Positions 1 to 51,868 of a DNA stretch of 64,000 nt are shown in pieces. The position numbers and the translations under genes are program-made. The stretch's first letter is position 1. Each line of letters opens with the position of its first letter. The notes below the pieces were generated by a model. It was not told the origin of the DNA. It saw only the letters and a program-made list of their open reading frames with translations, and searched no databases. This DNA is from Escherichia coli (GTDB taxonomy: Bacteria; Pseudomonadota; Gammaproteobacteria; Enterobacterales; Enterobacteriaceae), in the NCBI RefSeq assembly GCF_003334315.1, contig NZ_QOWR01000008.1; one strand, given 5' to 3'.

Positions 1-149
1 GGTTGAGAAGCGGTGTAAGTGAACTGCAGTTGCCATGTTTTACGGCAGTGAGAGCAGAGATAGCGCTGATGTCCGGCGGTGCTTTTGCCGTTACGCACCA
101 CCCCGTCAGTAGCTGAACAGGAGGGACAGCTGATAGAAACAGAAGCCAC
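1..149 (-). CDS. insA: IS1 InsA, N-terminal fragment (5-prime part only, cut by window edge)
   Basis: Minus-strand GTG at 147-149 followed by codons translating [49 protein letters not shown], matching recalled InsA. Confidence 0.8.
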
Positions 150-4941: not shown

Positions 4942-7019
4942 TATTTGCCGCCAATTGTCGCCGTCATGCGGATATGTCGGTTATCAGACAGTTCCAGATT
5001 CGACAGGACCACTAACTGCGGCAAGCTGCGGCGCAGGAAGCGAGACAATAATGGTCGCAGCGCGTGGTTCACCAACAATACTGGCGGCGCACCCAGCATC
5101 TCCTGACGGGATAGCGCTTCCTGAGTTTGCGCCAGTAAACGATCCGCCAGCCCTGGCTCCAGTCCTCCCCCGCCCTGCAGCGCCTGTAGTAACAAACGTT
5201 CCAGCGGTGTATCGAGGCCAATAACATGGACTTCATCTTTGCCAGGAAACCACTGCTGGGTAATCGCCCGTCCCAACGCCACGCGCACGACGGCGGTTAA
5301 TTCATGTGGATCGCTTTGGATGGGCGCATGTTCCGCCAGCGTTTCGAGAATGGTGCGCATATCGCGAATCGGTACTTTTTCATCGAGGAGATTTTGCAGC
5401 ACTTTATGCAGTGTGGTGAGCGTGACGACGCCAGGAACGAGATCTTCCGTCAGCTTTGGCATCTCCTGGGCGACGCGATCCAACAGCTGTTGCGCCTCCT
5501 GACGACCAAACAGCTCTGCGGCATGCTGGCTAATGAGGTGGTTAAGATGCGTTGCTACCACCGTGCTGGCCTCAACCACTGTGTACCCCTGAATCTGCGC
5601 CTGTTCTTTTAGCGCACTTTCAATCCAGATAGCATTCAGGCCAAATGCCGGATCGACGGTCGCCTCACCAGGTAACGTCCCGGCAGCGATTCCAGGGTTA
5701 ATCGCCAGCCAGCGCCCCGGATAAGCATCACCACTGCCAATCTCCACGCCTTTCATCAAAATGCGATAGCGGGCAGGTTGCAGATCCATATTGTCGCGAA
5801 TGTGCACCACTGGCGGCAGAAATCCCATCTCCTGGGCAAATTTCTTGCGGATACTGCGTATACGGCCCAACAACTCACCATCCTGCTGGAAATCGACCAT
5901 CGGGATCAGTCGATAACCCACTTCCATTCCCAGAGAATCTTCCAGTTGTACATCGTTCCACGTCGCTTCGACAACGGTATTATTCTCTGCCATTTTTACC
6001 GGTTTGGGTTCGGCAGGCGCTTTTTGTTCGCGTCCGCGTATCCACCAGGCCAGCCCGAGCAATCCGGCAGTGAACAGCAAAAATACCAGGTTCGGCATTC
6101 CAGGCACCAGGCCGAGTAAACCGAGCACGGCGGCGCTTAACAACATAACGCTTGGGTTACTGAAAAGCTGATTCACCATCTGCTCGCCAACATCCTGATC
6201 GGTGCTGACACGCGTAACGATGACCCCCGCGGCGGTAGAAATCACCAGCGCCGGAATTTGTGCCACCAGACCGTCGCCAATGGTCAATAGCGTATAACTT
6301 TCCGCCGCGTGTCCCATGCTCATGCCATGTTGCAGCACGCCGACCAGCAACCCGCCGACAACGTTAATGACCATGATGAGGATCCCGGCGATGGCATCGC
6401 CGCGAACAAACTTACTTGCCCCGTCCATTGAGCCGTAAAAATCGGCTTCCTGAGTCACTTCGGAGCGGCGTTTTTTCGCCTCATCTTCACCAATCAATCC
6501 GGCGTTAAGGTCGGCGTCAATCGCCATCTGCTTACCCGGCATACCATCGAGAACAAAGCGCGCACCCACTTCTGCGATACGCCCGGCACCTTTGGTAATG
6601 ACCATAAAGTTGATGATCACGAGAATGACAAACACCACGATACCGATAGCGAAATTGCCACCAACGAGGAAGTGACCGAACGCTTCGACCACCTTCCCTG
6701 CCGCCGCCGCGCCGGTATGCCCTTCCATTAAAATGATACGGGTTGAAGCCACGTTAAGTGCCAGACGCAACAGCGTGGTAAACAACAGAATGGTCGGAAA
6801 CGCAGCAAACTCAAGCGTGCGCTGGGTAAACATCGCCACCAGCAACACCATGATCGACAAGGCAATATTGAAGGTAAACAACAGGTCGAGTATGAATGCG
6901 GGCAGTGGCAGCACCATCATCGACAAGATCAACAGGATCAAAATCGGTCCGGCAAGGATCTGCCATTGTGTCGATTTCAGGTTTGCGGGCAGGCGCAGCA
7001 TCGCGGCCAGATTACTCAT
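4941..7019 (-). CDS. flhA: Flagellar type III export apparatus protein FlhA
   Basis: ORF 4941-7094; start moved to MSNLAAMLRLPANLK (692 aa) matching recalled FlhA. Confidence 0.95.
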   Translation of the reverse strand: MSNLAAMLRLPANLKSTQWQILAGPILILLILSMMVLPLPAFILDLLFTFNIALSIMVLLVAMFTQRTLEFAAFPTILLFTTLLRLALNVASTRIILMEGHTGAAAAGKVVEAFGHFLVGGNFAIGIVVFVILVIINFMVITKGAGRIAEVGARFVLDGMPGKQMAIDADLNAGLIGEDEAKKRRSEVTQEADFYGSMDGASKFVRGDAIAGILIMVINVVGGLLVGVLQHGMSMGHAAESYTLLTIGDGLVAQIPALVISTAAGVIVTRVSTDQDVGEQMVNQLFSNPSVMLLSAAVLGLLGLVPGMPNLVFLLFTAGLLGLAWWIRGREQKAPAEPKPVKMAENNTVVEATWNDVQLEDSLGMEVGYRLIPMVDFQQDGELLGRIRSIRKKFAQEMGFLPPVVHIRDNMDLQPARYRILMKGVEIGSGDAYPGRWLAINPGIAAGTLPGEATVDPAFGLNAIWIESALKEQAQIQGYTVVEASTVVATHLNHLISQHAAELFGRQEAQQLLDRVAQEMPKLTEDLVPGVVTLTTLHKVLQNLLDEKVPIRDMRTILETLAEHAPIQSDPHELTAVVRVALGRAITQQWFPGKDEVHVIGLDTPLERLLLQALQGGGGLEPGLADRLLAQTQEALSRQEMLGAPPVLLVNHALRPLLSRFLRRSLPQLVVLSNLELSDNRHIRMTATIGGK

Positions 7020-8160
7020 GGGTCGGTTTCTCGTTAATAAAATCCAGGGCTTCCGGCACCGGAAGATGAGTAGGTTGTACAGGGCGCTGTCCACCAGCCA
7101 GACGCCAGCGTTTCAGTTGCCAGACCCAGGCCAGCACTTCCGCCACCGCGGCGTACAGTTGACCCGGGATTTGTTGACCAATCTCCGCATGTCGATACAG
7201 CGCTCGCGCCAGCGGCGGCGCTTCAAGCGTCGGGACGTTATTTTCAGCGCCAATTTCACGAATGCGCAGCGCGACCAGCCCTGCACCTTTAGCGACCACT
7301 TTCGGTGCGCTCATTTTGTTTTCGTCATACTGCAACGCTACCGAATAGTGGGTCGGGTTATTGACAATGACATCCGCTTTCGGCACATCGGCCATCATCC
7401 GACGCCGTGCGGCAGCTCGCTGCATCTGACGGATCCGTCCTTTAACATGGGGGTCGCCTTCGCTTTGTTTGAACTCATCACGAATATCCTGCCGCGACAT
7501 TCGCAGCTTTTTCAGGTGGTTGAAGATTTGGAAAAAGACGTCAAATCCCACCATTGGAATGACACCAAGCACCACCAGCAGTGCGCATAGCCCTACCAAA
7601 TCCATCGCATTACCCATGGCGGTAATCGGAGACTCGGCCATTAAGCGCATCATCTGCGGCCAGTGATGCCAGAGAAAAAACCCCGTCACGCTGCCAACCA
7701 GGATGGTTTTCAAAATTGCTTTAAGCAACTCCGCGCCAGTCTGAGCCGAGAACATCCGTTTAATGCCCGGTAGCGGGTTGAGTTTGGAAAACTTCGGCTG
7801 CAAGGATTTGCCGCTAAATACCAGCCCTCCCAGCATGACCGGAGAAATGAGCGCCACCAGTACCACGCCGCTAATCAGTGGCAGCAGCGCCAGCATGGCT
7901 TCTCTGATCAGCAGAATAATCTGCCCGAGGATCAGATTCGGGTCTTTGATAATACTGTGATCAAAATGCAGCCCAGCGGAGAGCATGCCCGACAATCGAC
8001 GGGCCAGCGACACACCGCCAAACCAGATAACACTAACGCCCACCAGCAAAATCAGCAGTGAGGTCAGTTCACGGGAACGCGGGATTTGCCCCTCTTCCCG
8101 CGCTTTTTCTAGTCGGTGAGGTGTGGGGGCTTCTGTTTTGTCGTCGCTCTCGTCAGACAC
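7012..8160 (-). CDS. flhB: Flagellar export apparatus and substrate-specificity switch protein FlhB
   Basis: 382-aa ORF; conserved N-terminus and NPTH autocleavage motif present. Confidence 0.95.
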   Translation of the reverse strand: MSDESDDKTEAPTPHRLEKAREEGQIPRSRELTSLLILLVGVSVIWFGGVSLARRLSGMLSAGLHFDHSIIKDPNLILGQIILLIREAMLALLPLISGVVLVALISPVMLGGLVFSGKSLQPKFSKLNPLPGIKRMFSAQTGAELLKAILKTILVGSVTGFFLWHHWPQMMRLMAESPITAMGNAMDLVGLCALLVVLGVIPMVGFDVFFQIFNHLKKLRMSRQDIRDEFKQSEGDPHVKGRIRQMQRAAARRRMMADVPKADVIVNNPTHYSVALQYDENKMSAPKVVAKGAGLVALRIREIGAENNVPTLEAPPLARALYRHAEIGQQIPGQLYAAVAEVLAWVWQLKRWRLAGGQRPVQPTHLPVPEALDFINEKPTHE

Positions 8161-11351: not shown

Positions 11352-12953
11352 TCAGGATACCACTGGCGCAATTTGTAACTGCACCGACTCATGTCGTGCT
11401 ACTTCATGTTCTTCAAGGGTAAATACCGCTACACGCGACGAAAGATGGTCGGCCTGATTCGCCAGTTGTTCCGTTGCCACCGCCGCTTCTTCTACCAGCG
11501 AGGCGTTCTGCTGAGTCACCTGATCCATCTGGCTGACAGCCTGTGCAACCTGCTCAATCCCCCGCTGTTGTTCTTCCGACGCAGAGGCAATTTCTCCCAT
11601 AATGTCGTTCACGCGGGTCACCGAACTGACAATATCGATCATGGTCGCGGCGGCGTTATTCACCAGTTTCGAACCCTGCTGGACACGATTGACTGACTCT
11701 TCGATCAGCCCTTTGATCTCTTTTGCTGCCTGCGCGCTACGGCTGGCAAGATTGCGCACTTCACCTGCCACTACCGCAAAACCACGCCCCTGCTCTCCGG
11801 CGCGAGCCGCTTCCACTGCCGCATTCAGGGCCAGAATATTGGTCTGGAAAGCAATTCCGTCGATAACGCTGATAATGTCGCCAATTTTTTGCGAGCTGGT
11901 GGCGATCTCCTGCATGGTGTGAGTCATGGTACTGACCTGAACACCGCCCGCCTGCGCCGTTGTCGCGGCATTTTTTGCCAGTTCCGACGCCTGTCGTGCG
12001 TTATCGGCGTTTTGCCCTACCGTGGCGGTTAATTGCTCCATACTGGCGGCCGTTTGTGCCAGCGATGCCGCCTGCTGTTCGGTACGACTTGAGAGATCGT
12101 TATTGCCTGCGACAATCTCCGCGATACCAATGTGCATCTCCTGGCTTCCCTTACGCACATCACTTACCGTCCCACGCAAAGCCTGCTGCATGGTCTTCAG
12201 ACTGGCAAAAATGGCGGTGATCTCATTACGACCATATACCGCAATCGGACGCGCCAGATTACCCGCAGCAATGCTGTCAAAATGGCTACCGATAATGGCC
12301 AGTGGTTGAACAATCATCTTGCGCGTCCACCACAGCGCACTGCTGATGTAGATCGCCGCAACAATAATCATGCTGATAAACACCAGTGCCGAAATCTGAT
12401 AGTTACGCTGGCTTTGCGAACTGGCGGCTTCCAGCACATGGTTGATCTCCAGCTGCCAGGCCTCAAAGTTAACGTCAAACGCATTCTGTGATCCCTGCAC
12501 CGGCGCAGTGAGGAAATCCGAAAGTTGATTACTTTCAAGCCAGGTCGCCTGATGTTCGAGATCGTTGTGCCAGCGGGCAAAACTTTTCTCCGTCTCTTTT
12601 TGCAATCCCCTGACGTGCTCGTTGCCCGCAGTCATCGCCATAAAACTTTTAAACAGCGTGGTGGATTGCGTCAGACTGGCGCGCGCCGTCGTCATCAACG
12701 TTTTAATGTCATCCGCCGGATAGCTAAGTGCCGTCAGAGTGCCCGCTTTGTTCAGCGCGGTACTGGCCTGTAACATTACCGCCCGAGTTTGCGCTAATGC
12801 CGCACGTTGCTGATTGCTCTGCTCGACCTGATTCAGTCGTTGCAAATCGTCGCGAAATGCCCAAAAAGACATGCCGTTACTGCCAATCTGCAAGATCCCG
12901 CAGAGAATCAAAATTAAAAACAGCGTGGTCGAAATTCGAATACGATTAAACAT
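11352..12953 (-). CDS. tap: Methyl-accepting chemotaxis protein IV (dipeptide/pyrimidine sensor) Tap
   Basis: ORF 11352-12956; 533-aa product from MFNRIRIST; MCP signalling domain. Confidence 0.93.
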   Translation of the reverse strand: MFNRIRISTTLFLILILCGILQIGSNGMSFWAFRDDLQRLNQVEQSNQQRAALAQTRAVMLQASTALNKAGTLTALSYPADDIKTLMTTARASLTQSTTLFKSFMAMTAGNEHVRGLQKETEKSFARWHNDLEHQATWLESNQLSDFLTAPVQGSQNAFDVNFEAWQLEINHVLEAASSQSQRNYQISALVFISMIIVAAIYISSALWWTRKMIVQPLAIIGSHFDSIAAGNLARPIAVYGRNEITAIFASLKTMQQALRGTVSDVRKGSQEMHIGIAEIVAGNNDLSSRTEQQAASLAQTAASMEQLTATVGQNADNARQASELAKNAATTAQAGGVQVSTMTHTMQEIATSSQKIGDIISVIDGIAFQTNILALNAAVEAARAGEQGRGFAVVAGEVRNLASRSAQAAKEIKGLIEESVNRVQQGSKLVNNAAATMIDIVSSVTRVNDIMGEIASASEEQQRGIEQVAQAVSQMDQVTQQNASLVEEAAVATEQLANQADHLSSRVAVFTLEEHEVARHESVQLQIAPVVS

Positions 12954-12998
12954 CAACGCTCCCCATCAGGCGGCAATGACCGCGTTAGTAAATACTCG

Positions 12999-14660
12999 TC
13001 AAAATGTTTCCCAGTTTGGATCTTGTTCAGCAATTCGCAGTCGTGGCTGTGCCGGTGGTTGCTCACTGGCAGGACGGGATGGTGTTTGCGGTTTATTGGT
13101 GAGTGGGCTGGCTGCCAGACGGAACGCGGAAACCGCTTGCGTTAAACGACTCGCCTGTTCTTCCAGCGCAGCGGCGGCGGCAGCTGATTCCTGCACCAGC
13201 GATGCGTTCTGTTGCGTGACGCGATCCATTTCCGAAACCGCCAATGCGACTTGATCGATGCCACGGCTCTGTTCATCCGATGCCGATGCAATCTCGCCCA
13301 TAATGTCAGTCACGCGAGTGACAGCATTGACGATATTGTTCATTGTTTCCCCGGCGCTTTCGACCAGCACCGAACCGGTATCAACGCGTGAGACGGAGTC
13401 TTCAATGAGGGCTTTGATCTCTTTTGCCGCCTGGGCGCTGCGACTGGCAAGATTACGCACTTCACCCGCCACCACGGCAAAACCACGGCCCTGTTCACCC
13501 GCACGCGCGGCTTCAACCGCGGCATTCAGCGCGAGGATATTAGTCTGGAAGGCAATACCGTCGATAACGCTGATAATGTCGGCAATTTTCTTCGAACTAT
13601 CGGCGATCTCATGCATCGTTTTCACTACGCCATCCACCACTTTGCCGCCGTGCTGGGCGGTGTCGGAGGCACTTTGCGCCAGTTGCGAGGCCTGGCGGGC
13701 GTTATCGGCGTTTTGCTTCACTGTCGCGGTGAGCTGCTCCATGCTGGCGGCAGTTTCTTCCAGCGCGGATGCCTGCTGTTCAGTACGGGAGGAAAGATCG
13801 GTGTTGCCCGCCGCAATTTCACGGGTACCGGCATAGATGGCATCTGAACCTTCGCGGACATGAGTGACGGTGTCAGTCAAAGAGCGTTGCATATGTGAAA
13901 CGCTCTGCGCCAGGTCGCCCATTTCACTGCGCCCGTCAATGGTCAGGGTATTCGCCAGGTTACCACCGGCGATTTCGCGAATGTGAGCAATAATTTTTGC
14001 CAGCGGAGTAAGCAACATACGGCGAATGCCGTACCACGCCACCAGCAGAATCAATACCACCACCAGCGCGATAACCGCCAGTTGCCACTGGGCAAATCGG
14101 TAATCATCTGCGTTGTCAGTGACGATATCGCGATACAGTTTTTCACTGCTGAGGGCGTACTGAGCAAACGCTTCGCCCATTGCATTTTGCATTCCCTGGG
14201 TTGGCTGAGCGAAATAAGCTCCAGTATTGCCATAATCTAGATAATCAATCAGTTCAGTTAACGCTGTGTAATAGTTTTTATATTTTTCATCAATATTACG
14301 ACTGGTAGCGACCATTTCAGGTAACGGTGCCATGCTTTTGAATTTTTTATAATGCGTCGCTGCCTGCGCCAATGTTTTCCTGGCGCTATCGAGCAATTCA
14401 ACTTTGGCGTTACTTTGTTGATTGGAGGAATCCATCATCATCCGTACCGCTGAACGACTCAGGTTAATGCGCGTTTGCAGCATTAAATCCCAGGTTGACG
14501 TCAGCTCGCCCTGCTGTTCCCGTAATTGATTGGAAACCACAAAGCTCTTCTGGCTATGGTGAAGGGAAGAAAAAAACAGACTGCCGGAAATAAGCTGTAA
14601 CAGTGCGAATACCCCCAGCACCATTACCAACAGCGTGACTACGCGGATACGGTTAATCAT
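12999..14660 (-). CDS. tar: Methyl-accepting chemotaxis protein II (aspartate/maltose sensor) Tar
   Basis: ORF 12999-14681; start moved to [11 protein letters not shown] (553 aa); C-terminal NWETF pentapeptide present. Confidence 0.95.
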
Positions 14661-14691: not shown

Positions 14692-14718
14692 TTATCGGCA
14701 AGGAGGGGGGAAACTTTA
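14692..14718 (-). promoter_or_regulatory. Sigma-28 (FliA) class 3 promoter of the tar-tap-cheRBYZ operon
   Basis: Minus strand reads TAAAGTTT, 11-nt spacer, GCCGATAA: exact match to sigma-28 consensus, about 30 nt upstream of tar. Confidence 0.85.
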
Positions 14719-15328: not shown

Positions 15329-18220
<2,892 letters not shown>

Positions 18221-18224
<4 letters not shown>

Positions 18225-19108
18225 GCTTCCTCGGTTGTCGTCTGTTGTTGCGGATTTTTCACCGCACGCACATGCTCTTCCAGTTCAATAAACGACGGGC
18301 GTTCGCTGGAATAGAGCGTTTTGCGACCAAACTCAACGGCGATAGGCGGTGCGTAACCGTTCAGATTAGAAAGCAGAGTGACTTTGACGCACTGCATCAT
18401 TTTGCTGGTTTCGGCGCTTTTCTGACGTAAAACAGTCGCTAATGGGGAAATAAATCCGTAAGCCAATAAAATGCCGAGGAAAGTCCCCACCATCGCATGT
18501 GCGATAAGCGCACCCAGCTCGGCGGCAGGACGATCGGCTGAACCTAACGCGTGAACGACCCCCATTACAGCCGCAACAATACCAAACGCCGGAAGTGAGT
18601 CCCCGACCAGCGCCAGACTGTTCGCCGGGACTTCTGCCTCGCTTTCGTGCGTCTCAATCTCTTCATCCATCAGGGCTTCGATTTCGAAGGTGTTCATGTG
18701 ACCGCTGATAATCAGGCGCAGATAATCGACGATAAAATCAAGCATGACGCTATCCGCGAGGATGCGTGGGTAGCTGGCGAAGATCTCGCTCTCACGGGGA
18801 TTTTCAATATCACGTTCCAGCGAAAACATCCCCATCTGCCGCGATTTCGCCATCAACCGATAAAGCAGAGCCAGCAGATCCATATACATTGCTTTGGTGT
18901 ATTTGGAGCGACGAAACAGCAACGGCAGCGCCTTCAGCGTGCCTTTAATCGCTTTGCCATTATTGCCGACGATAAACGACCCAATCCCTGCACCGGCAAT
19001 AATCACCAGTTCAGCGGGTTGATAGAGTGCTCCAAGGCTTCCACCGGTCATCAAATAACCGCCGAAAACTGTACCGAGAACAACCAGGTAACCTAATAAG
19101 ATAAGCAC
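18221..19108 (-). CDS. motA: Flagellar motor stator protein MotA
   Basis: 295-aa ORF matching recalled MotA. Confidence 0.96.
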
Positions 19109-41666: not shown

Positions 41667-42218
41667 TTAATATATATCAGAAGCAGGCAGGCTGGAGGAT
41701 TTCTGCACAAGTCCGGTACAGGTTTGGCGCTGATAGTGTTGATACTTCCGTAACGCGATGCGGTAATTGTTGGTGCTGGTGGTGGGCAGCCACGGGGCGA
41801 GGATTTCATCAAGGAAACCGTCCTGCAGCTGATCGAGGGAAATATTTTGCTCGTGTAGATGATTCCCCAAACGGCGCAGACGAACGACATATTCACGCAC
41901 CGTACCTGGGCTCATTTCAGTTTGCTCAAAAAGAAATTGCTTAAAGCCGATAATATCGAAAAAATCACTCTGCGTTTTGCAATGTAAATCACCGCAAAAT
42001 CGGCACAATGCCGCCCATGATTTTTGTTCCGTTTGCCAGCCCTTTTCATCAAGCAGCGTGTCCAGGCGGGAAATCTCGATTTTATTCACTATTTTGCCGT
42101 CGCGAACGAGGGTAATGCGATCGAGTAATTTACGGCAATGCGCGCAATGGGTCTGGCTGTGTTTAAAGTCTTTAAGATAGCGGCTTAATGGCCGTCTTTT
42201 CAGGTGCTGCACCATCAT
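41667..42218 (-). CDS. fliZ: Regulator FliZ (RpoS antagonist, flagellar class 2 regulator)
   Basis: ORF 41667-42254; start moved to MMVQHLKRRPLSRYL (183 aa). Confidence 0.9.
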   Translation of the reverse strand: MMVQHLKRRPLSRYLKDFKHSQTHCAHCRKLLDRITLVRDGKIVNKIEISRLDTLLDEKGWQTEQKSWAALCRFCGDLHCKTQSDFFDIIGFKQFLFEQTEMSPGTVREYVVRLRRLGNHLHEQNISLDQLQDGFLDEILAPWLPTTSTNNYRIALRKYQHYQRQTCTGLVQKSSSLPASDIY

Positions 42219-42263
42219 TAAGAACTCCTGGTAGTCAAAGTTAAAGTGCGGCATTTACTGACG

Positions 42264-42983
42264 TTATAACTTACCCAGTTTAGTGCGTAACCGTTTAATA
42301 GCCTGGCTGTGTAACTGACTGACCCGCGATTCCCCGACCTCCAGCACTGCACCAATCTCTTTGAGATTCAGCTCTTCCTGGTAATAGAGGGTTAATACCA
42401 GTTTTTCGCGCTCCGGCAACGTTTCGATGGCTTCCATCACCCGCTGGCGCAGATTATTGTCCAGCAGTTGTTGTAGCGGGTTTTCTCGCTGATGATCATC
42501 AGTAACCAGTTCGATGCTATCGCCGTGCTCTTCGCGCCACTCATCGTAGGAGAAGAGCTGGCTGTTATTGGTGTCGAGCAACATTTGGCGATAATCGGCA
42601 ATATCGATCCCTAAACGTTCCGCTACCTCAGTTTCCGTGGCGTTGCGGCCAAGTTCCTGCTCCAGTTGCCCTATTGCCTGTGCCACTTCACGCGCGTTGC
42701 GTCGCACGCTGCGCGGCACCCAGTCACGGCTGCGAAGTTCATCCAGCATAGCGCCACGGATACGCTGCACTGCGTAAGTTGTAAATGCCGTTCCTTGTAG
42801 GGCGTCATAGCGTTCGACGGCATTAAGTAACCCAATGCCGCCCGCCTGTAGCAGATCGTCAAGTTCCACGCTCGCGGGCAGTCGAACCTGCAGGCGCAAT
42901 GCTTCGTGACGCACCAGCGGGACATAACGCTGCCACAGCGAGTGTTTATCCATTACACCTTCAGCGGTATAGAGTGAATTCAC
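42264..42983 (-). CDS. fliA: Flagellar sigma factor sigma-28 (FliA)
   Basis: 239-aa ORF with sigma-70 region 2 and 4 motifs; matches recalled FliA. Confidence 0.96.
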   Translation of the reverse strand: MNSLYTAEGVMDKHSLWQRYVPLVRHEALRLQVRLPASVELDDLLQAGGIGLLNAVERYDALQGTAFTTYAVQRIRGAMLDELRSRDWVPRSVRRNAREVAQAIGQLEQELGRNATETEVAERLGIDIADYRQMLLDTNNSQLFSYDEWREEHGDSIELVTDDHQRENPLQQLLDNNLRQRVMEAIETLPEREKLVLTLYYQEELNLKEIGAVLEVGESRVSQLHSQAIKRLRTKLGKL

Positions 42984-43008
42984 GATAAACAGCCCTGCGT
43001 TATATGAG

Positions 43009-43016
43009 TTATCGGC
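43009..43016 (-). promoter_or_regulatory. Candidate sigma-28 -10 element (GCCGATAA) of the autoregulated fliA promoter
   Basis: Minus strand GCCGATAA about 25 nt upstream of the fliA start; the -35 is a poor match. Confidence 0.5.
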
Positions 43017-43102
43017 ATGATTATCCGTTTCTGCAGGGTTTTTAATCGGACGATTAGTGGGTGAAATGAGGGGTTATTTGGGGGTTACCGGTAAATTGCG
43101 GG

Positions 43103-43128
43103 CAGAAAAAACCCCGCCGTTGGCGGGG
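43103..43128 (-). terminator. Rho-independent terminator at the end of the fliC 3-prime UTR
   Basis: Minus strand hairpin ccccgcc-aacg-gcgggg followed by a U-run. Confidence 0.75.
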
Positions 43129-43149
43129 AAGCACGTTGCTGACAAATTA

Positions 43150-43260
43150 CCATTCATGTTGCCGGATGCGGCGTAACGCCTTATCCGGCCTACAAAAATC
43201 TGCAAATTCAATAAATTGCAATTCACCTTGTAGGCCTGATAAGCACAGCGCACCAGGCAA
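43150..43260. repeat. REP/BIME palindromic units within the fliC 3-prime UTR
   Basis: gccggatgcggcgtaacgccttatccggcctac and ggcctgataagcacagcgcaccaggc match REP consensus in inverted orientation. Confidence 0.75.
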
Positions 43261-43301
43261 TTTGGCGTTGCCGTCAGTCTCAGTTAATCAGGTTACGACG
43301 A

Positions 43302-44612
43302 TTAACCCTGCAGCAGAGACAGAACCTGCTGCGGTACCTGGTTGGCTTTTGCCAGTACGGAGTTACCGGCCTGCTGGATAATCTGCGCTTTCGACATGTT
43401 GGACACTTCGGTCGCATAGTCGGCGTCCTGAATACGGGACTGCGCTTCAGACAGGTTGGTAGTGGTGTTGTTCAGGTTGGTGACTGCGGAATCCAGACGG
43501 TTTTGCACCGCACCGAGGGAGGAGCGGAAAGTATCAACCTGTGCAATCGCTTTGTCTAAAAGTGCCAGTGGATCAGCAGAAGAAGCCCCTGAGAACTGTG
43601 CAGTCGGTTTTGCTGTTGATAATTCAACAACAACTTTATTATCTGTTGCTTTTGCCGCAGTATTATCATCAAGTGCCTTTGAAACCGTTGTAGCGTAGTT
43701 TTTACCTTGGAATGTTACATATCCCGCAGCCGAGCCGTCAGAGTCAGCGGCAACTTTAATCAGTTGATCTTTCTGAGTAGCCGCAGTCGTTAGTCCATTA
43801 TCGGTGTCTGTGTATTCGACATCGGCTTTATTCAACGTGACTTTGCCGTCTGTATGATTAATCGACGCGGAGTAGAAATCATTGCCGGATTGAACGACGA
43901 ACTGTGATGTAGCAGCCCCTTTCGCATCCAGAGTGTTGTGTAACGTCAGGCTAGAAACATCGACTGTTTTACCTGTCGCAGTAGTCAGATCTTTCGCAAC
44001 AGCAGTGAAATCAACACCAACAGGTTTTGCCCCGGCGGCACCGGTAATTTGAGTAATGGAATCACTAACGTTAAGTGACTGACCCGAAACGGAGAAACCG
44101 TTCAGTCCTAATGTAGAAGAGTCAATCTTCTGCAAATCAATGCTAATAGTCTGCCCATCATTCGCGCCAACCTGAATCTTCATCGAACCATCTTTCGCCA
44201 GCACATTCACGCCGTTGAACTGGGTCTGACCGGAAACGCGATCAATTTCATCCAGACGGGATTTGATTTCGTCCTGGATTGAAGACAGGTCAGAATCAGA
44301 GTTAGTCCCGGTCGTCGCCTGAACGGTCAACTCACGCACACGCTGCAAGTTGTTGTTGATTTCAGACAGCGCGCCTTCAGTGGTCTGCGCCAGAGAGATA
44401 CCGTCGTTGGCGTTACGTGCGGCCTGAGTCAGACCTTTGATGTTAGAGGTGAAGCGGTTAGCAATCGCCTGGCCCGCAGCGTCATCTTTAGCGCTGTTAA
44501 TGCGCAGACCAGAAGAGAGGCGCTCGATAGAAGTCGACAGCGCAGACTGGTTTTTGTTGATGTTGTTCTGAGTGATCAGCGAGAGGCTGTTGGTATTAAT
44601 GACTTGTGCCAT
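43302..44612 (-). CDS. fliC: Flagellin FliC (H antigen), 436 aa, non-K-12 central domain
   Basis: ORF 43302-44633; start moved to MAQVINTNSLSLITQNN; N and C termini conserved, central region divergent and shorter than the 498-aa K-12 protein. Confidence 0.95.
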   Translation of the reverse strand: MAQVINTNSLSLITQNNINKNQSALSTSIERLSSGLRINSAKDDAAGQAIANRFTSNIKGLTQAARNANDGISLAQTTEGALSEINNNLQRVRELTVQATTGTNSDSDLSSIQDEIKSRLDEIDRVSGQTQFNGVNVLAKDGSMKIQVGANDGQTISIDLQKIDSSTLGLNGFSVSGQSLNVSDSITQITGAAGAKPVGVDFTAVAKDLTTATGKTVDVSSLTLHNTLDAKGAATSQFVVQSGNDFYSASINHTDGKVTLNKADVEYTDTDNGLTTAATQKDQLIKVAADSDGSAAGYVTFQGKNYATTVSKALDDNTAAKATDNKVVVELSTAKPTAQFSGASSADPLALLDKAIAQVDTFRSSLGAVQNRLDSAVTNLNNTTTNLSEAQSRIQDADYATEVSNMSKAQIIQQAGNSVLAKANQVPQQVLSLLQG

Positions 44613-44688
44613 GATTTCTTTTCCTGTTTTCAAGTCTACGGTTTAAGTATTGGGCTTCCACCCTTCGGCTTCGTCGCCGTCAACCCTG

Positions 44689-44715
44689 TTATCGTCTGGT
44701 CACTCACAACCTTTA
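44689..44715 (-). promoter_or_regulatory. Sigma-28 promoter of fliC
   Basis: Minus strand reads TAAAGGTT, 11-nt spacer, GACGATAA, about 75 nt upstream of fliC. Confidence 0.8.
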
Positions 44716-44788
44716 GAATTTTTTTCTAGCGGTCGAAATACTCCCCTTCCTCGTTGCTGTTCGTGCCATTAAGGCAAAAAATAAATCG

Positions 44789-44815
44789 TAAACTTTACCC
44801 CGCTTACGCCGATAA
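44789..44815 (+). promoter_or_regulatory. Sigma-28 promoter of the fliDST operon
   Basis: Plus strand reads TAAACTTT, 11-nt spacer, GCCGATAA, 45 nt upstream of fliD. Confidence 0.85.
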
Positions 44816-44859
44816 CCCCGGTATTCGTTCTATACACGTCGCATGATTAAGGAAACTAT

Positions 44860-46275
44860 ATGGCTAGTATTTCAACGCTTGGGGTTGGGTCGGGGCTGAA
44901 CTTAAGCAGCATCCTTGACAGTCTGGAGGCGGCAGAAAAATCTACCCTGACGCCGATATCAAAACAGCAAAGCTCTTACACCGCGAAACTGAGCGCCTAC
45001 GGGACGCTGAAAAGTGCACTAGAGAGTTTCCAGACAGCCAACACAGCACTGAATAAAGCCGATTTATTTACCGCCACCTCAACCACCAGCAGTTCATCGG
45101 CTTTCAGCGCCACCACCACGGGCAGCGCGATTGCTGGGAAATACACCATTAGCGTTAGCCAACTGGCGCAGGCACAGACGCTGACAACAAAAAATAGTCA
45201 AAAAGACAGTAAAGCCGCCATCGCCACCAGCGATAGCGTACTAACCATCCAGCAAGGTGGCGGTAAAGATCCGGTCACGATTGATATCAGCGCGGCTAAC
45301 TCGTCACTTTCCGGCATTCGCGATGCCATTAACAACGCCAAAGCTGGTGTCAGCGCCAGTATCATCCATGTGGGTAACGGCGAGTATCGTCTGTCCATCA
45401 CTGCTAACGATACGGGCAGCGATAACGCTATGAAACTTAGCGTCAGCGGCGACAGCGCCCTGGAAAGTTTTATGGGTTACAACGGAACGTCGGGTGATAG
45501 CAGCAATGGCATGATTGAAAGCGTCACTGCGCAAAACGCCAAACTGACAGTCAATAACGTTGAGATTGAAAACAGCAGTAACACTATCAGCGACGCGCTG
45601 GAAGATATCACCCTCAACCTGAATGACGTCACCACCGGTAATCAGACACTGACCATCAGTAAAGACACATCCAAAGCTGAAAATGCGGTTAAAACGTGGG
45701 TGGATGCCTATAACTCATTGCAGGATACGTTCAGCAGCTTAACCAAATACACCGCTGTCGATGCCGGAGCAGAGAGTCAGGACTCCAGCAATGGCGCATT
45801 ACTCGGTGACTCCACACTGCGTACCATCCAGACTCAGCTTAAAACCTTGCTCGCCAATACTCACAGCAGTTCAAACTATAAAACGCTGGCACAGATTGGC
45901 ATTACCAGCGATGCCAGTACCGGCAAGCTGGAAATCGCGACCGACAAACTGCAAACGGCGCTAAAAAAAGATGCCGCTGGCATCAGTGAAATGTTTATAG
46001 GTGACGGTAAAAGTACAGGGGTAACCACCGGCATTAGTAGCAACCTAACCAGTTGGCTCTCTTCCACCGGGATAATCCAGGCCGCAAAAGATGGCGTCAG
46101 CAAAACGCTGAATAATTTGACCGACCAGTACAACGCAGCCAGTGAGCGTATCGATACCTTAATGACGCGCTATAAAGCCCAGTTCACCCAATTAGATGTG
46201 TTAATGAACTCGCTTAACTCCACCAGTAGCTATCTGACACAGCAATTCGACACCTCAAATAGCAACTCGAAATAA
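44860..46275 (+). CDS. fliD: Flagellar filament cap protein FliD
   Basis: 471-aa ORF MASISTLGVGSGL...; clearly FliD but with many substitutions relative to the recalled K-12 protein. Confidence 0.94.
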   Translation: MASISTLGVGSGLNLSSILDSLEAAEKSTLTPISKQQSSYTAKLSAYGTLKSALESFQTANTALNKADLFTATSTTSSSSAFSATTTGSAIAGKYTISVSQLAQAQTLTTKNSQKDSKAAIATSDSVLTIQQGGGKDPVTIDISAANSSLSGIRDAINNAKAGVSASIIHVGNGEYRLSITANDTGSDNAMKLSVSGDSALESFMGYNGTSGDSSNGMIESVTAQNAKLTVNNVEIENSSNTISDALEDITLNLNDVTTGNQTLTISKDTSKAENAVKTWVDAYNSLQDTFSSLTKYTAVDAGAESQDSSNGALLGDSTLRTIQTQLKTLLANTHSSSNYKTLAQIGITSDASTGKLEIATDKLQTALKKDAAGISEMFIGDGKSTGVTTGISSNLTSWLSSTGIIQAAKDGVSKTLNNLTDQYNAASERIDTLMTRYKAQFTQLDVLMNSLNSTSSYLTQQFDTSNSNSK

Positions 46276-46290
46276 TCTTCAGGAGAAACT

Positions 46291-46701
46291 ATGTACGCGG
46301 CAAAAGGCACCCAGGCCTATGCACAAATTGGCGTCGAAAGCGCCGTAATGAGCGCCAGCCAACAGCAGCTGGTCACCATGCTATTTGATGGAGTGCTGAG
46401 CGCACTGGTTAGAGCGCGCCTGTTTATGCAGGACAACAATCAGCAAGGCAAAGGCGTCTCTTTATCAAAAGCGATCAACATCATTGAGAACGGGCTGCGG
46501 GTGAGTCTTGATGAAGAGAGCAAAGACGAATTAACCCAAAACTTGATTGCTCTTTATAGCTATATGGTCAGGCGTTTGCTGCAAGCCAATTTACGCAACG
46601 ATGTCTCCGCAGTCGAAGAAGTGGAAGCATTAATGCGCAATATTGCCGATGCCTGGAAAGAGTCTTTACTCTCCCCTTCTTTGATTCAGGACCCAGTCTG
46701 A
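46291..46701 (+). CDS. fliS: Flagellin-specific export chaperone FliS
   Basis: 136-aa ORF matching recalled FliS. Confidence 0.95.
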
Positions 46702-47066
46702 TGAACGACGCACCGCATTTGTATTTCGCCTGGCAACAACTCGTCGAAAAAAGCCAGCTCATGTTACGCCTGGCAACGGAAGAACAATGGGACGAACTCA
46801 TCGCCAGCGAAATGGCGTATGTGAATGCGGTGCAGGAGATTGCACATCTGACTGAAGAGATTGACCCGTCCATCACGATGCAGGAGCAGCTCCGCCCGAT
46901 GCTGCGCCTGATTCTCGACAACGAAAGCAAGGTAAAGCAGTTATTACAGATTCGGATGGATGAACTGGCGAAACTGGTCGGTCAGTCATCGGTGCAAAAA
47001 TCGGTGTTAAGTGCCTATGGCGATCAGGGCGGCTTTGTGCTGGCTCCGCAGGATAACCTCTTTTGA
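46701..47066 (+). CDS. fliT: FliD chaperone and anti-FlhDC factor FliT
   Basis: 121-aa ORF matching recalled FliT; start overlaps fliS stop. Confidence 0.94.
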
Positions 47067-47143
47067 ATCTGAATGAGTCGATGGCTCGCGAATAATCCGA
47101 TTACGGCTACGCTTCTAATGTTCCCCTTGAATGGAGTCGAAGA

Positions 47144-48631
47144 ATGCGTAATCCCACGCTGTTACAATGTTTTCACTGGTATTACCCGGAAGGCGGTAAG
47201 CTCTGGCCTGAACTGGCCGAGCGCGCCGACGGTTTTAATGATATTGGTATCAATATGGTCTGGTTGCCGCCCGCCTATAAAGGCGCATCGGGCGGGTATT
47301 CGGTCGGCTACGACTCCTATGATTTATTTGATTTAGGCGAGTTTGATCAGAAAGGCAGCATCCCTACTAAATATGGCGTTAAAGCACAACTGCTGGCCGC
47401 CATTGACGCCCTGAAACGTAATGACATTGCGGTGCTGTTGGACGTGGTAGTCAACCACAAAATGGGCGCGGATGAAAAAGAAGCTATTCGCGTGCAGCGT
47501 GTAAATGCTGATGACCGTACGCAAATTGACGAAGAAATCATTGAGTGTGAAGGCTGGACGCGTTACACCTTCCCCGCCCGTGCCGGGCAATACTCGCAGT
47601 TTATCTGGGATTTCAAATGTTTTAGCGGTATCGACCATATCGAAAACCCTGATGAAGATGGCATATTTAAAATTGTTAACGACTACACCGGCGAAGGCTG
47701 GAACGATCAGGTTGATGATGAATTAGGTAATTTCGATTATCTGATGGGTGAGAATATCGATTTTCGCAATCATGCCGTGACGGAAGAGATTAAATACTGG
47801 GCGCGCTGGGTGATGGAACAAACGCAATGCGACGGTTTTCGTCTTGATGCGGTCAAACATATTCCGGCGTGGTTTTATAAAGAGTGGATCGAACACGTAC
47901 AGGAAGTTGCGCCAAAGCCGCTGTTTATTGTGGCAGAGTACTGGTCACATGAAGTCGATAAACTGCAAACGTATATTGATCAGGTGGAAGGCAAAACCAT
48001 GCTGTTCGATGCGCCGCTGCAGATGAAATTCCATGAAGCATCGCGCATGGGGCGCGACTACGACATGACGCAGATTTTCACGGGTACATTAGTGGAAGCC
48101 GATCCTTTCCACGCCGTAACCCTCGTTGCCAACCACGACACCCAACCGTTGCAAGCCCTCGAAGCCCCCGTCGAACCGTGGTTTAAACCGCTGGCGTATG
48201 CCTTAATTTTGTTGCGGGAAAATGGCGTTCCTTCGGTGTTCTATCCGGACCTCTACGGTGCGCATTACGAAGATGTCGGCGGTGACGGGCAAACCTATCC
48301 GATAGATATGCCAATAATCGAACAGCTTGATGAGTTAATTCTCGCCCGTCAGCGTTTCGCCCACGGTGTACAGACGTTATTTTTCGACCATCCGAACTGC
48401 ATTGCCTTTAGCCGCAGTGGCACTGACGAATATCCTGGCTGCGTGGTGGTCATGTCGAACGGGGATGATGGCGAAAAAACCATTCATCTGGGAGAGAATT
48501 ACGGCAATAAAACCTGGCGTGATTTTCTGGGGAACCGGCAAGAGAGCGTAGTGACCGACGAAAACGGCGAAGCAACCTTCTTTTGCAACGGCGGCAGCGT
48601 CAGCGTGTGGGTTATCGAAGAGGTGATTTAA
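47144..48631 (+). CDS. amyA: Cytoplasmic alpha-amylase
   Basis: 495-aa ORF, GH13 family; matches recalled AmyA. Confidence 0.94.
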
Positions 48632-51475: not shown

Positions 51476-51868
51476 TAAGCCTGGAGATTATTGATCAACA
51501 ATACTGCGTCATAAGAAATCTCTATTAGACAAAGTAGACGCTCCTTCCACATGCGCCACAAGAAACCTCTATTCCAGTGACACAATTACGCCTGATTATT
51601 TCCCTAGCCCGGAATATGAATAAAAACATCAACAAAGATTAAATTATTCAAACGTTACTGTTGCGTCTGCGGTCGTAGCAACATCCGACGTGGTGATGAG
51701 TGTTAAAAGAGACACTCTGATGTTCAGAGGGGTTATCGCGTTTACGGATCGTGGATGGCAGAAAACTTTCAGGATCAGGTATCCATTTTAAACCAGAAAT
51801 AGGGTGAGTTTGCCCCATCCATGCCCCACGCGGGCAGATGGGATGTAATTACCAACAGGTTACAAAAC

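Follow-up and report, generated by a model that had tools for sequence, protein, structure and literature searches.

The diversity of the H antigens of E. coli has long been viewed as having arisen in part by lateral transfer. In Pseudomonas aeruginosa, A-type and B-type forms of the filament cap protein FliD are reportedly co-inherited with a-type and b-type flagellin, as Arora et al. are said to have described in 2000 in Infect Immun; the molecule name of PDB entry 5fhy carries the term 'B-type'. Discrete cap types that travel with the flagellin type within one species are the likeness between P. aeruginosa and the locus described here, the differences being that this organism is distant and has polar flagella and glycosylated flagellin. 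In Salmonella, fliB, fliC and fliD form two lineages that are incongruent with the core genome, whereas fliA and fliS are congruent with it, and recombination takes place mainly within lineages (PMC5744181). The E. coli locus resembles that of Salmonella enterica in that the tree of the cap gene tracks the flagellin gene while those of the flanking fliA and fliS track the core genome. It differs from it in that the two lineages of S. enterica are tied to monophasic versus biphasic serovars, whereas fliD of E. coli falls into three classes and fliB is missing.

We analysed a stretch of 64,000 nt of an E. coli genome (contig NZ_QOWR01000008.1), hereafter the window. Positions 39.6-50.5 kb of the window correspond to flagellar region IIIa of E. 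coli and show the customary gene order, with dcyD, tcyJ (fliY), fliZ, fliA and then fliC on the minus strand, fliD, fliS, fliT and amyA on the plus strand, followed by yedD (minus strand) and yedE (plus strand), and the annotations of K-12 and of strain 120899 agree with this order. Our main reading, to which we assign a probability of roughly 0.8, is that window fliD is a functional filament-cap gene from one of the three discrete and old lineages of fliD that coexist in E. coli, and that it is linked to fliC.

The gene itself (44860-46275, plus strand) is an intact ATG-initiated open reading frame coding for the flagellar filament cap protein FliD of 471 aa, of an allele that we call class B. 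The protein scores 684.5 bits against the NCBIfam equivalog NF005955 (cut-off 387), residues 1-464 aligning with positions 1-465 of the 465 of the profile, and matches E. coli FliD of PDB 5h5v with E=5.8e-173. Pfam domains PF02465 (FliD_N) and PF07195 (FliD_C) are found on the database proteins P0001-P0012, which are 97-100% identical to window FliD. The locus is canonical, fliD being divergent from fliC and first of fliD-fliS-fliT, with a sigma-28 promoter upstream. This sigma-28 (FliA) type promoter (44789-44815, plus strand), TAAACTTT-N11-GCCGATAA, is an exact match to the consensus for which the chance expectation in the window is 0.01; it sits 45 nt 5' of the ATG, and both of its hexamers are kept in classes A, B and C as well as in Pseudocitrobacter. 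Given the known sigma-28 consensus, this element probably drives fliD, and window FliD is predicted to cap the filament as it does in K-12.

That the gene could instead be a sequencing artefact, a decaying pseudogene or a cap paralogue from a second flagellar system has a negligible probability. The DNA of window fliD is 100% identical to the annotated fliD of strain 120899 (WP_000146840.1) and recurs unchanged in the independent complete genomes of strains 120899 and TBU0218_11-3CC. The reading frame is intact and lies at the canonical site, between fliC and fliST, the equivalog score is well above its cut-off, the sigma-28 promoter is conserved and the gene evolves under purifying selection. 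We found no support for such a reading, yet fliD has been published as absent from ST131 genomes (PMC5369007), a point to which we return below. The candidate explanations of artefact, pseudogene and second-system paralogue were thus set aside on the basis of the intact frame, the identical copies, the canonical locus and the equivalog profile. Window fliD is an ordinary and intact allele, annotated before, of a gene that is well understood.

K-12 FliD (b1924, NP_416434; PDB 5h5v) occupies the same position and shares its domain layout, its sigma-28 promoter and ten FliC-contact residues with window FliD. It is 468 aa long, compared with 471 aa in the window, where two residues are inserted around position 210 and one more close to the C-terminus. 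The sequence-only reading had held FliD to be divergent from the K-12 allele, with near-identity of more than 98% as the level that would speak against it. Alignment bears this out, since BLASTP against FliD of K-12 MG1655 (L001:9873-11279) gave 375/471 identities (80%), 90% positives and 3 gap positions, far under that level. The same reading had noticed frequent substitutions along the protein, and every domain is indeed affected, with identities to K-12 of 82.5% for D0-N, 89.7% for D1-N, 81.0% for D2-D3, 76.5% for D1-C and 75.5% for D0-C, the domain limits being taken from crystallised constructs (PDB 5h5v, ~41-418; PDB 5h5w, ~70-269). At the DNA level, identity of fliD to K-12 is 62-84% per 100-nt bin and ~73% overall, and window fliD falls outside the K-12-type class A, defined by at least 95% nucleotide identity to MG1655. 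The neighbouring fliA, fliS, fliT, amyA, yedD and yedE are 96-100% identical to K-12.

Base-level comparison with K-12 delimits a single block of 2.77 kb with dense mismatches (43521-46290), which holds fliC except for its last ~73 codons, the fliC-fliD spacer, fliD and the fliD-fliS spacer. The left flank of the block includes fliA (42264-42983, minus strand), the gene of sigma-28, conserved with 99.6% amino acid identity to K-12 and a dS of 0.018. The flagellin gene fliC (43302-44612, minus strand) codes for 436 aa of the H5 type, as supported by its open reading frame, by the annotated coordinates in strain 120899 and by its assignment to the NCBIfam FliC/FljB family; the conserved 5' part of fliC that lies inside the block is 81-90% identical to K-12. 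The spacer between fliC and fliD (44613-44859) bears both promoters and is divergent and class-specific. It is 54-79% identical to K-12, lacks a 19-nt insert found there and is 100% identical to the spacer of an ST131 H4 strain. The conserved right flank begins with fliS (46291-46701, plus strand), coding for the flagellin chaperone (TIGR00208; 99.3% amino acid identity to K-12, dS 0.069), followed by fliT (46701-47066, plus strand), coding for the FliD chaperone and regulator (NF007836; 97.5% amino acid identity to K-12). Synonymous divergence from K-12 is 0.040 for fliT and 0.074 for amyA. FliT is thus conserved at 97.5% although D0-C of FliD, the region that is its binding partner, is only 75.5% identical.

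The block stops at 46290, one base short of the fliS ATG (46291). Outside of it, mismatches to K-12 are sparse, with 7 in 43302-43520 and the first one after 46290 at 46362, and a 100-nt sliding comparison gives 98-100% identity to K-12 in the flanks. An edge ~70 nt inside fliS, indicated by 100-nt binning, was overruled by the base-level mismatches; it is class C alone whose divergence reaches 24 nt into fliS. It had been suggested that the divergence boundary of fliD be compared with the recombination boundary of fliC, and the edge on the fliD side proves to be the outer edge of the very block that holds the fliC allele. An Rfam scan of positions 42000-47500 at gathering thresholds, for the fliC 3'-UTR small RNA FliX or any other family, returned no match.

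The distribution of this allele was surveyed in 5,426 complete E. coli genomes, a collection so heavily biased to clinical clones such as ST131 that the class frequencies given here are not population frequencies. A fliD at least 99% identical to that of the window occurs in 154 genomes, one of 95-99% identity in 1,170 and one of 72.7-74% in 3,189, and not one of the 5,426 complete genomes carries a fliD that is 80-95% identical to that of the window, which makes the distribution strictly bimodal. A reciprocal search with K-12 fliD gave the mirror image, in that all class B matches to the query fell at 60-80% identity. In several hundred further genomes the match was weak and confined to 126 nt; these hold a third type, as in ATCC 43886 (470 aa). 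Three classes result: class A, which is K-12-like (3,189 genomes, 59% of the 5,426), class B, which includes the window, ST131 and O104:H4 (1,324 genomes, 24%), and class C (863 genomes, 16%, by direct search with the ATCC 43886 gene). An earlier size of ~788 for class C, derived from the weak K-12 matches, was too low compared with the direct search. About 50 of the 5,426 genomes have none of the three. Within class C, 839 of the 863 genomes are at least 99% identical to one another. FliD proteins of classes A and B are 79-80% identical and those of A and C or B and C 49-50%, while FliA, FliS and FliT are 96-100% identical among the strains compared for the three classes.

Membership of class B was defined by at least 97% full-length nucleotide identity to fliD of JJ1887 and O104:H4, a length of 471 aa and a shared spacer. 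Window fliD shows 97.6-97.8% nucleotide and 97.9% amino acid identity to the 471-aa FliD of the ST131 strains JJ1887 and EC958 (O25b:H4) and of O104:H4, with a spacer identity of 100%. Little or nothing separates the window from these strains in the fliC-fliD spacer or over the first ~250 nt of fliC, whereas they have an H4 flagellin of 349 aa and a fliA-fliC spacer of 163 nt where the window has an H5 flagellin of 436 aa and a spacer of 318 nt. One database protein, P0024, is a naturally occurring chimera of FliD classes A and B, resembling B in residues ~1-320 and A in residues ~321-470, which indicates that crossovers inside fliD occur, but rarely.

The central region of window fliC (561 nt) is present in 309 genomes, in all of them at 99.5% identity or more. 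It is 99.6% identical over 561 nt to that of an ST1193 isolate and of the avian pathogenic strain APEC IMT5155. The latter is presumably O2:K1:H5. As ST1193 is O75:H5 (PMC11362767), this match of the central region identifies the window flagellin as H5. A joint BLAST query in which the H5 central region was combined with the initial 600 nt of class B fliD, counted at 80% query coverage or more, recovered both together in 308 of the 309 genomes, and no H5 region was found beside a class A or C fliD, or without a class B match, among the 309 H5 genomes. Likewise, class B fliD accompanies the H4 flagellin in 758/759 genomes and a 443-aa flagellin type, 80% identical to H5, in 145/145, these counts covering three flagellin types while ~113 class B genomes carry other flagellins. 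By joint matching in complete genomes, no class A or C fliD was found with the H4 or the 443-aa type.

The association is not one of single alleles. Class B fliD adjoins at least four flagellin types, of 349, 436, 443 and 493 aa. Compared with the window, these four share the first 250-350 nt of fliC (94-100%) and the spacer (91-100%), and differ in their central parts. In strain XJ6.1, the 493-aa flagellin pairs a class B 5' end with a central domain similar to the one of K-12 H48. Common 5' ends with different centres indicate that crossovers in the conserved 5' segment of fliC reassort the H determinant with respect to the cap class, and H types are nested within cap classes. The proposal that fliD had been exchanged together with the adjacent fliC allele consequently holds in part: both lie in one block and the flagellin predicts the cap class, but there is not one H type per fliD allele.

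Outside of E. coli, each class has relatives of its own. Class B FliD is nearest to that of Escherichia sp. E4208 (97%), then to those of Pseudocitrobacter and Enterobacteriaceae FGI 57 (88-89%), so that it is nearer to Pseudocitrobacter (89%) than to K-12 FliD (80%). Class A FliD is nearest to E. albertii (94-95%) and to Kluyvera ascorbata and K. georgiana (87%), and class C FliD to Citrobacter (85-87%), Salmonella (76-86%) and E. fergusonii (71-72%). Class C thus belongs to the Salmonella/Citrobacter FliD family, and class B of the window stands outside that family. In a neighbour-joining tree with 300 bootstraps, class B groups with Pseudocitrobacter/FGI 57 in 99% of replicates and class A with its relatives and Kluyvera in 90%, while a clade of A and B is recovered in 0%. 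The closest FliD proteins outside Escherichia, those of Pseudocitrobacter (P. corydidari, P. cyperus) and FGI 57, share 89% amino acid identity with window FliD at a dN of 0.061, that is, the value between the window and P. corydidari, as against 0.149 between the window and K-12. The Pseudocitrobacter locus has the gene order of the window from tcyL to yedK, and the FliC N-terminus carries the class B residues T27 and L74; its differences are a nucleotide identity of ~80%, a FliD of 469 aa and a flagellin of 570 aa. The genes flanking fliD in P. corydidari are at ordinary inter-genus distances from those of the window. With a fliD DNA identity of only ~80%, Pseudocitrobacter is to be seen as a relative and not as a recent donor.

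Between the window and K-12, fliD has a pS of 0.71, which is saturated, a dN of 0.149 and a dN/dS of 0.067 (Nei-Gojobori), while the dS of the flanking genes is ~0.02-0.07. A dN/dS of ~0.07 together with saturated synonymous sites points to an old allele under purifying selection. Within class B, that is, between the window and the ST131 strain JJ1887, the dS of fliD is 0.068 and similar to that of the flanking genes, which suggests that class B has been resident in E. coli for roughly as long as the age of the species. The class B lineage as such would be at least as old as the separation of enterobacterial genera, and may have originated either as a long-lived polymorphism or by a long-ago acquisition from a Pseudocitrobacter-like lineage; with synonymous sites saturated, ancient polymorphism and ancient lateral transfer look alike.

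A mode of spread among strains can also be proposed. The window carries a B-type haplotype, made of the 5' part of fliC, the spacer and fliD, joined to an H5 determinant in a chromosome that is otherwise 98-100% identical to K-12. Homologous recombination is likely to pass such haplotypes from one E. coli strain to another, by way of the conserved stretches that border them, with left crossovers in the last ~220 nt of fliC or in fliA and right crossovers in fliS; a third zone of crossovers, within the conserved 5' segment of fliC, would swap H determinants within a class. Lying 250 bp from fliC, a gene under strong diversifying selection, the cap gene would hitch-hike with it, a cause suggested by the pattern of association. 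Moreover, with fliD classes that are 27-50% different, recombination inside the gene is expected to be strongly suppressed, such that the cap is carried along with the flagellin locus.

The sequence-only reading had offered co-evolution of cap and filament surfaces as a possible reason for joint exchange. This functional co-adaptation supposes that each FliD class is tuned to its flagellins and that selection keeps cap and filament alleles together. It predicts that the H4, H5 and 443-aa flagellins should nearly always occur with class B, as they do, but adjacency by itself predicts the same association. The terminal domains of FliD do contact D0/D1 of FliC, and FliC-contact residues of FliD have been tested by mutagenesis in the Salmonella cap (PMC12221982). 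We checked ten of these (V9, L22, Y296, R319, F440, L443, M446, L450, Y456 and F461 in Salmonella numbering; PMC12221982): window FliD is identical to Salmonella at 9/10, M446 being L as in K-12, and 10/10 are identical between classes A and B, 9/10 also in C. On the filament side, the window and K-12 show 4 differences in FliC residues 1-140 and 94% identity over the C-terminal 90 residues. With the FliC core and all 10 tested contact residues alike in A and B, the co-evolution proposal finds no footing for these two classes. It may still apply to class C, whose linked flagellins also have divergent ends (84% over the N-terminal 170 aa of FliC and 71-72% over the C-terminal 90 aa). Furthermore, the flagellins served by a single FliD class range from 349 to 493 aa and differ greatly in their outer domains, the A/B chimera occurs in nature, and dN/dS is 0.06-0.12 in all FliD domains where it is computable, the synonymous sites of D0-C being saturated. 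Co-adaptation as the force that holds the haplotypes together is therefore unlikely, and for A versus B linkage to fliC is a better explanation than cap-filament co-evolution.

A further possibility is that diversifying or frequency-dependent selection acts directly on FliD, as a tip antigen, adhesin or phage target, and maintains the classes independently of fliC. FliD is surface-exposed, and deep discrete classes without intermediates resemble balanced antigen polymorphisms; antigenically distinct A and B types of FliD are also said to exist in P. aeruginosa. Direct selection of this kind sits poorly with an overall dN/dS of 0.067 and with the fact that divergence in the exposed D2-D3 (0.067, 81% identity) does not exceed that in the buried D0/D1, and the block includes a non-coding spacer and saturated synonymous sites, as an old linked haplotype predicts. 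We hold it to be very unlikely. Improbable too, if broader in its consequences, is a view of the three classes as ancient cassettes of flagellin and cap, any one of which has closer kin in other bacteria (Pseudocitrobacter for B, E. albertii and Kluyvera for A, Citrobacter and Salmonella for C) than in the other two classes, in which FliD class matters in itself and balancing selection maintains the classes. If this were true, FliD class would affect tip antigenicity, adhesion, phage susceptibility or the range of polymerisable flagellins, most plausibly for C versus A/B. The three-class pattern gains weight only if the cap class has such functional or antigenic consequences.

Linkage to fliC, our preferred reading, has consequences of its own. 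The unit of recombination of the E. coli H antigen exceeds the variable region of fliC and usually takes in fliD, and a larger unit matters for the interpretation of H-type switches, for the masking of recombination in phylogenies and for the use of FliD as an antigen. The three-class, cross-genus pattern parallels the one published for Salmonella and fits the view of H antigens as subject to lateral transfer; our literature search found no paper describing three fliD classes in E. coli or their relationships across genera. In practice, probes, primers and alignments based on K-12 miss class B and class C fliD. Alignment of the MG1655 gene led to fliD being scored as absent in the ST131 strains JJ1886, S250 and SE15 (PMC5369007). 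Since ST131 genomes carry an intact, annotated fliD of 471 aa, this absence is an artefact of the divergence of the gene.

The third type of fliD, class C, is exemplified by E. coli ATCC 43886 (positions 6173-7585 of its flagellar locus, L003), and its product shares 49-50% identity with both the K-12 protein and that of the window. This class was found in 863 of the 5,426 complete E. coli genomes and is highly uniform, 839 of these copies reaching 99% or more, while its nearest relatives are the FliD proteins of Citrobacter (85-87%) and Salmonella (76-86%). The divergent block that carries class C includes all of fliC and extends 24 nt into fliS.

Recombination between classes does occur within fliD itself, as judged from the sequence of P0024, a natural chimeric FliD encoded on a single 48-kb Logan contig. 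Residues ~1-320 of this protein resemble class B, the type found in the window (34-40 of 40 matches per block), and residues ~321-470 resemble the K-12-like class A (39-40 of 40 per block). A separate Logan database cluster, P0121 (613 aa), consists of a K-12-type FliD fused to a FliS domain, with Pfam domains PF07195, PF02561 and PF02465. This fusion probably results from the loss of a stop codon, or from an assembly or gene-calling artefact.

The ST131 strains JJ1886, S250 and SE15 were reported to lack fliD and to carry deletions in fliC (PMC5369007), a claim that rests on the alignment of MG1655 genes. Because the ST131 genomes JJ1887 and EC958 carry an intact class B fliD together with an H4 fliC, the published claim is an artefact of divergence.

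The spacer between fliA and fliC is dimorphic in length among the compared strains. The long form measures 318 nt in the window (42984-43301) and 320 nt in K-12, with 91-96% identity between the two; in K-12 it contains the annotated sRNA fliX (L001, the MG1655 locus, 7913-8107), and an Rfam scan of the spacer of the window returned no match. The short form of 163 nt, devoid of ~155 nt of the long one, occurs in JJ1887, CUVET16-465, 2013C-4830 and ATCC 43886. Among the strains compared, fliD class does not predict which form is present.

Between yedK and fliE (51534-51601), the window has neither yedL nor the yedN/intG pseudogene segment, both found there in K-12 (16550-17152 and 17220-18431 of its locus), and strain 120899 is organised in the same way. 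Also missing from the window are the insertions adjoining yedK in ATCC 43886 (L003:12829-14126) and JJ1887 (L004, the JJ1887 locus, 12368-13205). Both comprise an IS200/IS605 tnpA, which truncates yedK in JJ1887, and of these two loci only that of ATCC 43886 has a TnpB-family gene beside yedK.

Finally, a second perfect sigma-28 consensus, TAAAGTTT-N11-GCCGATAA, lies at 14692-14718 on the minus strand of the window, and this predicted promoter presumably serves another flagellar or chemotaxis operon.
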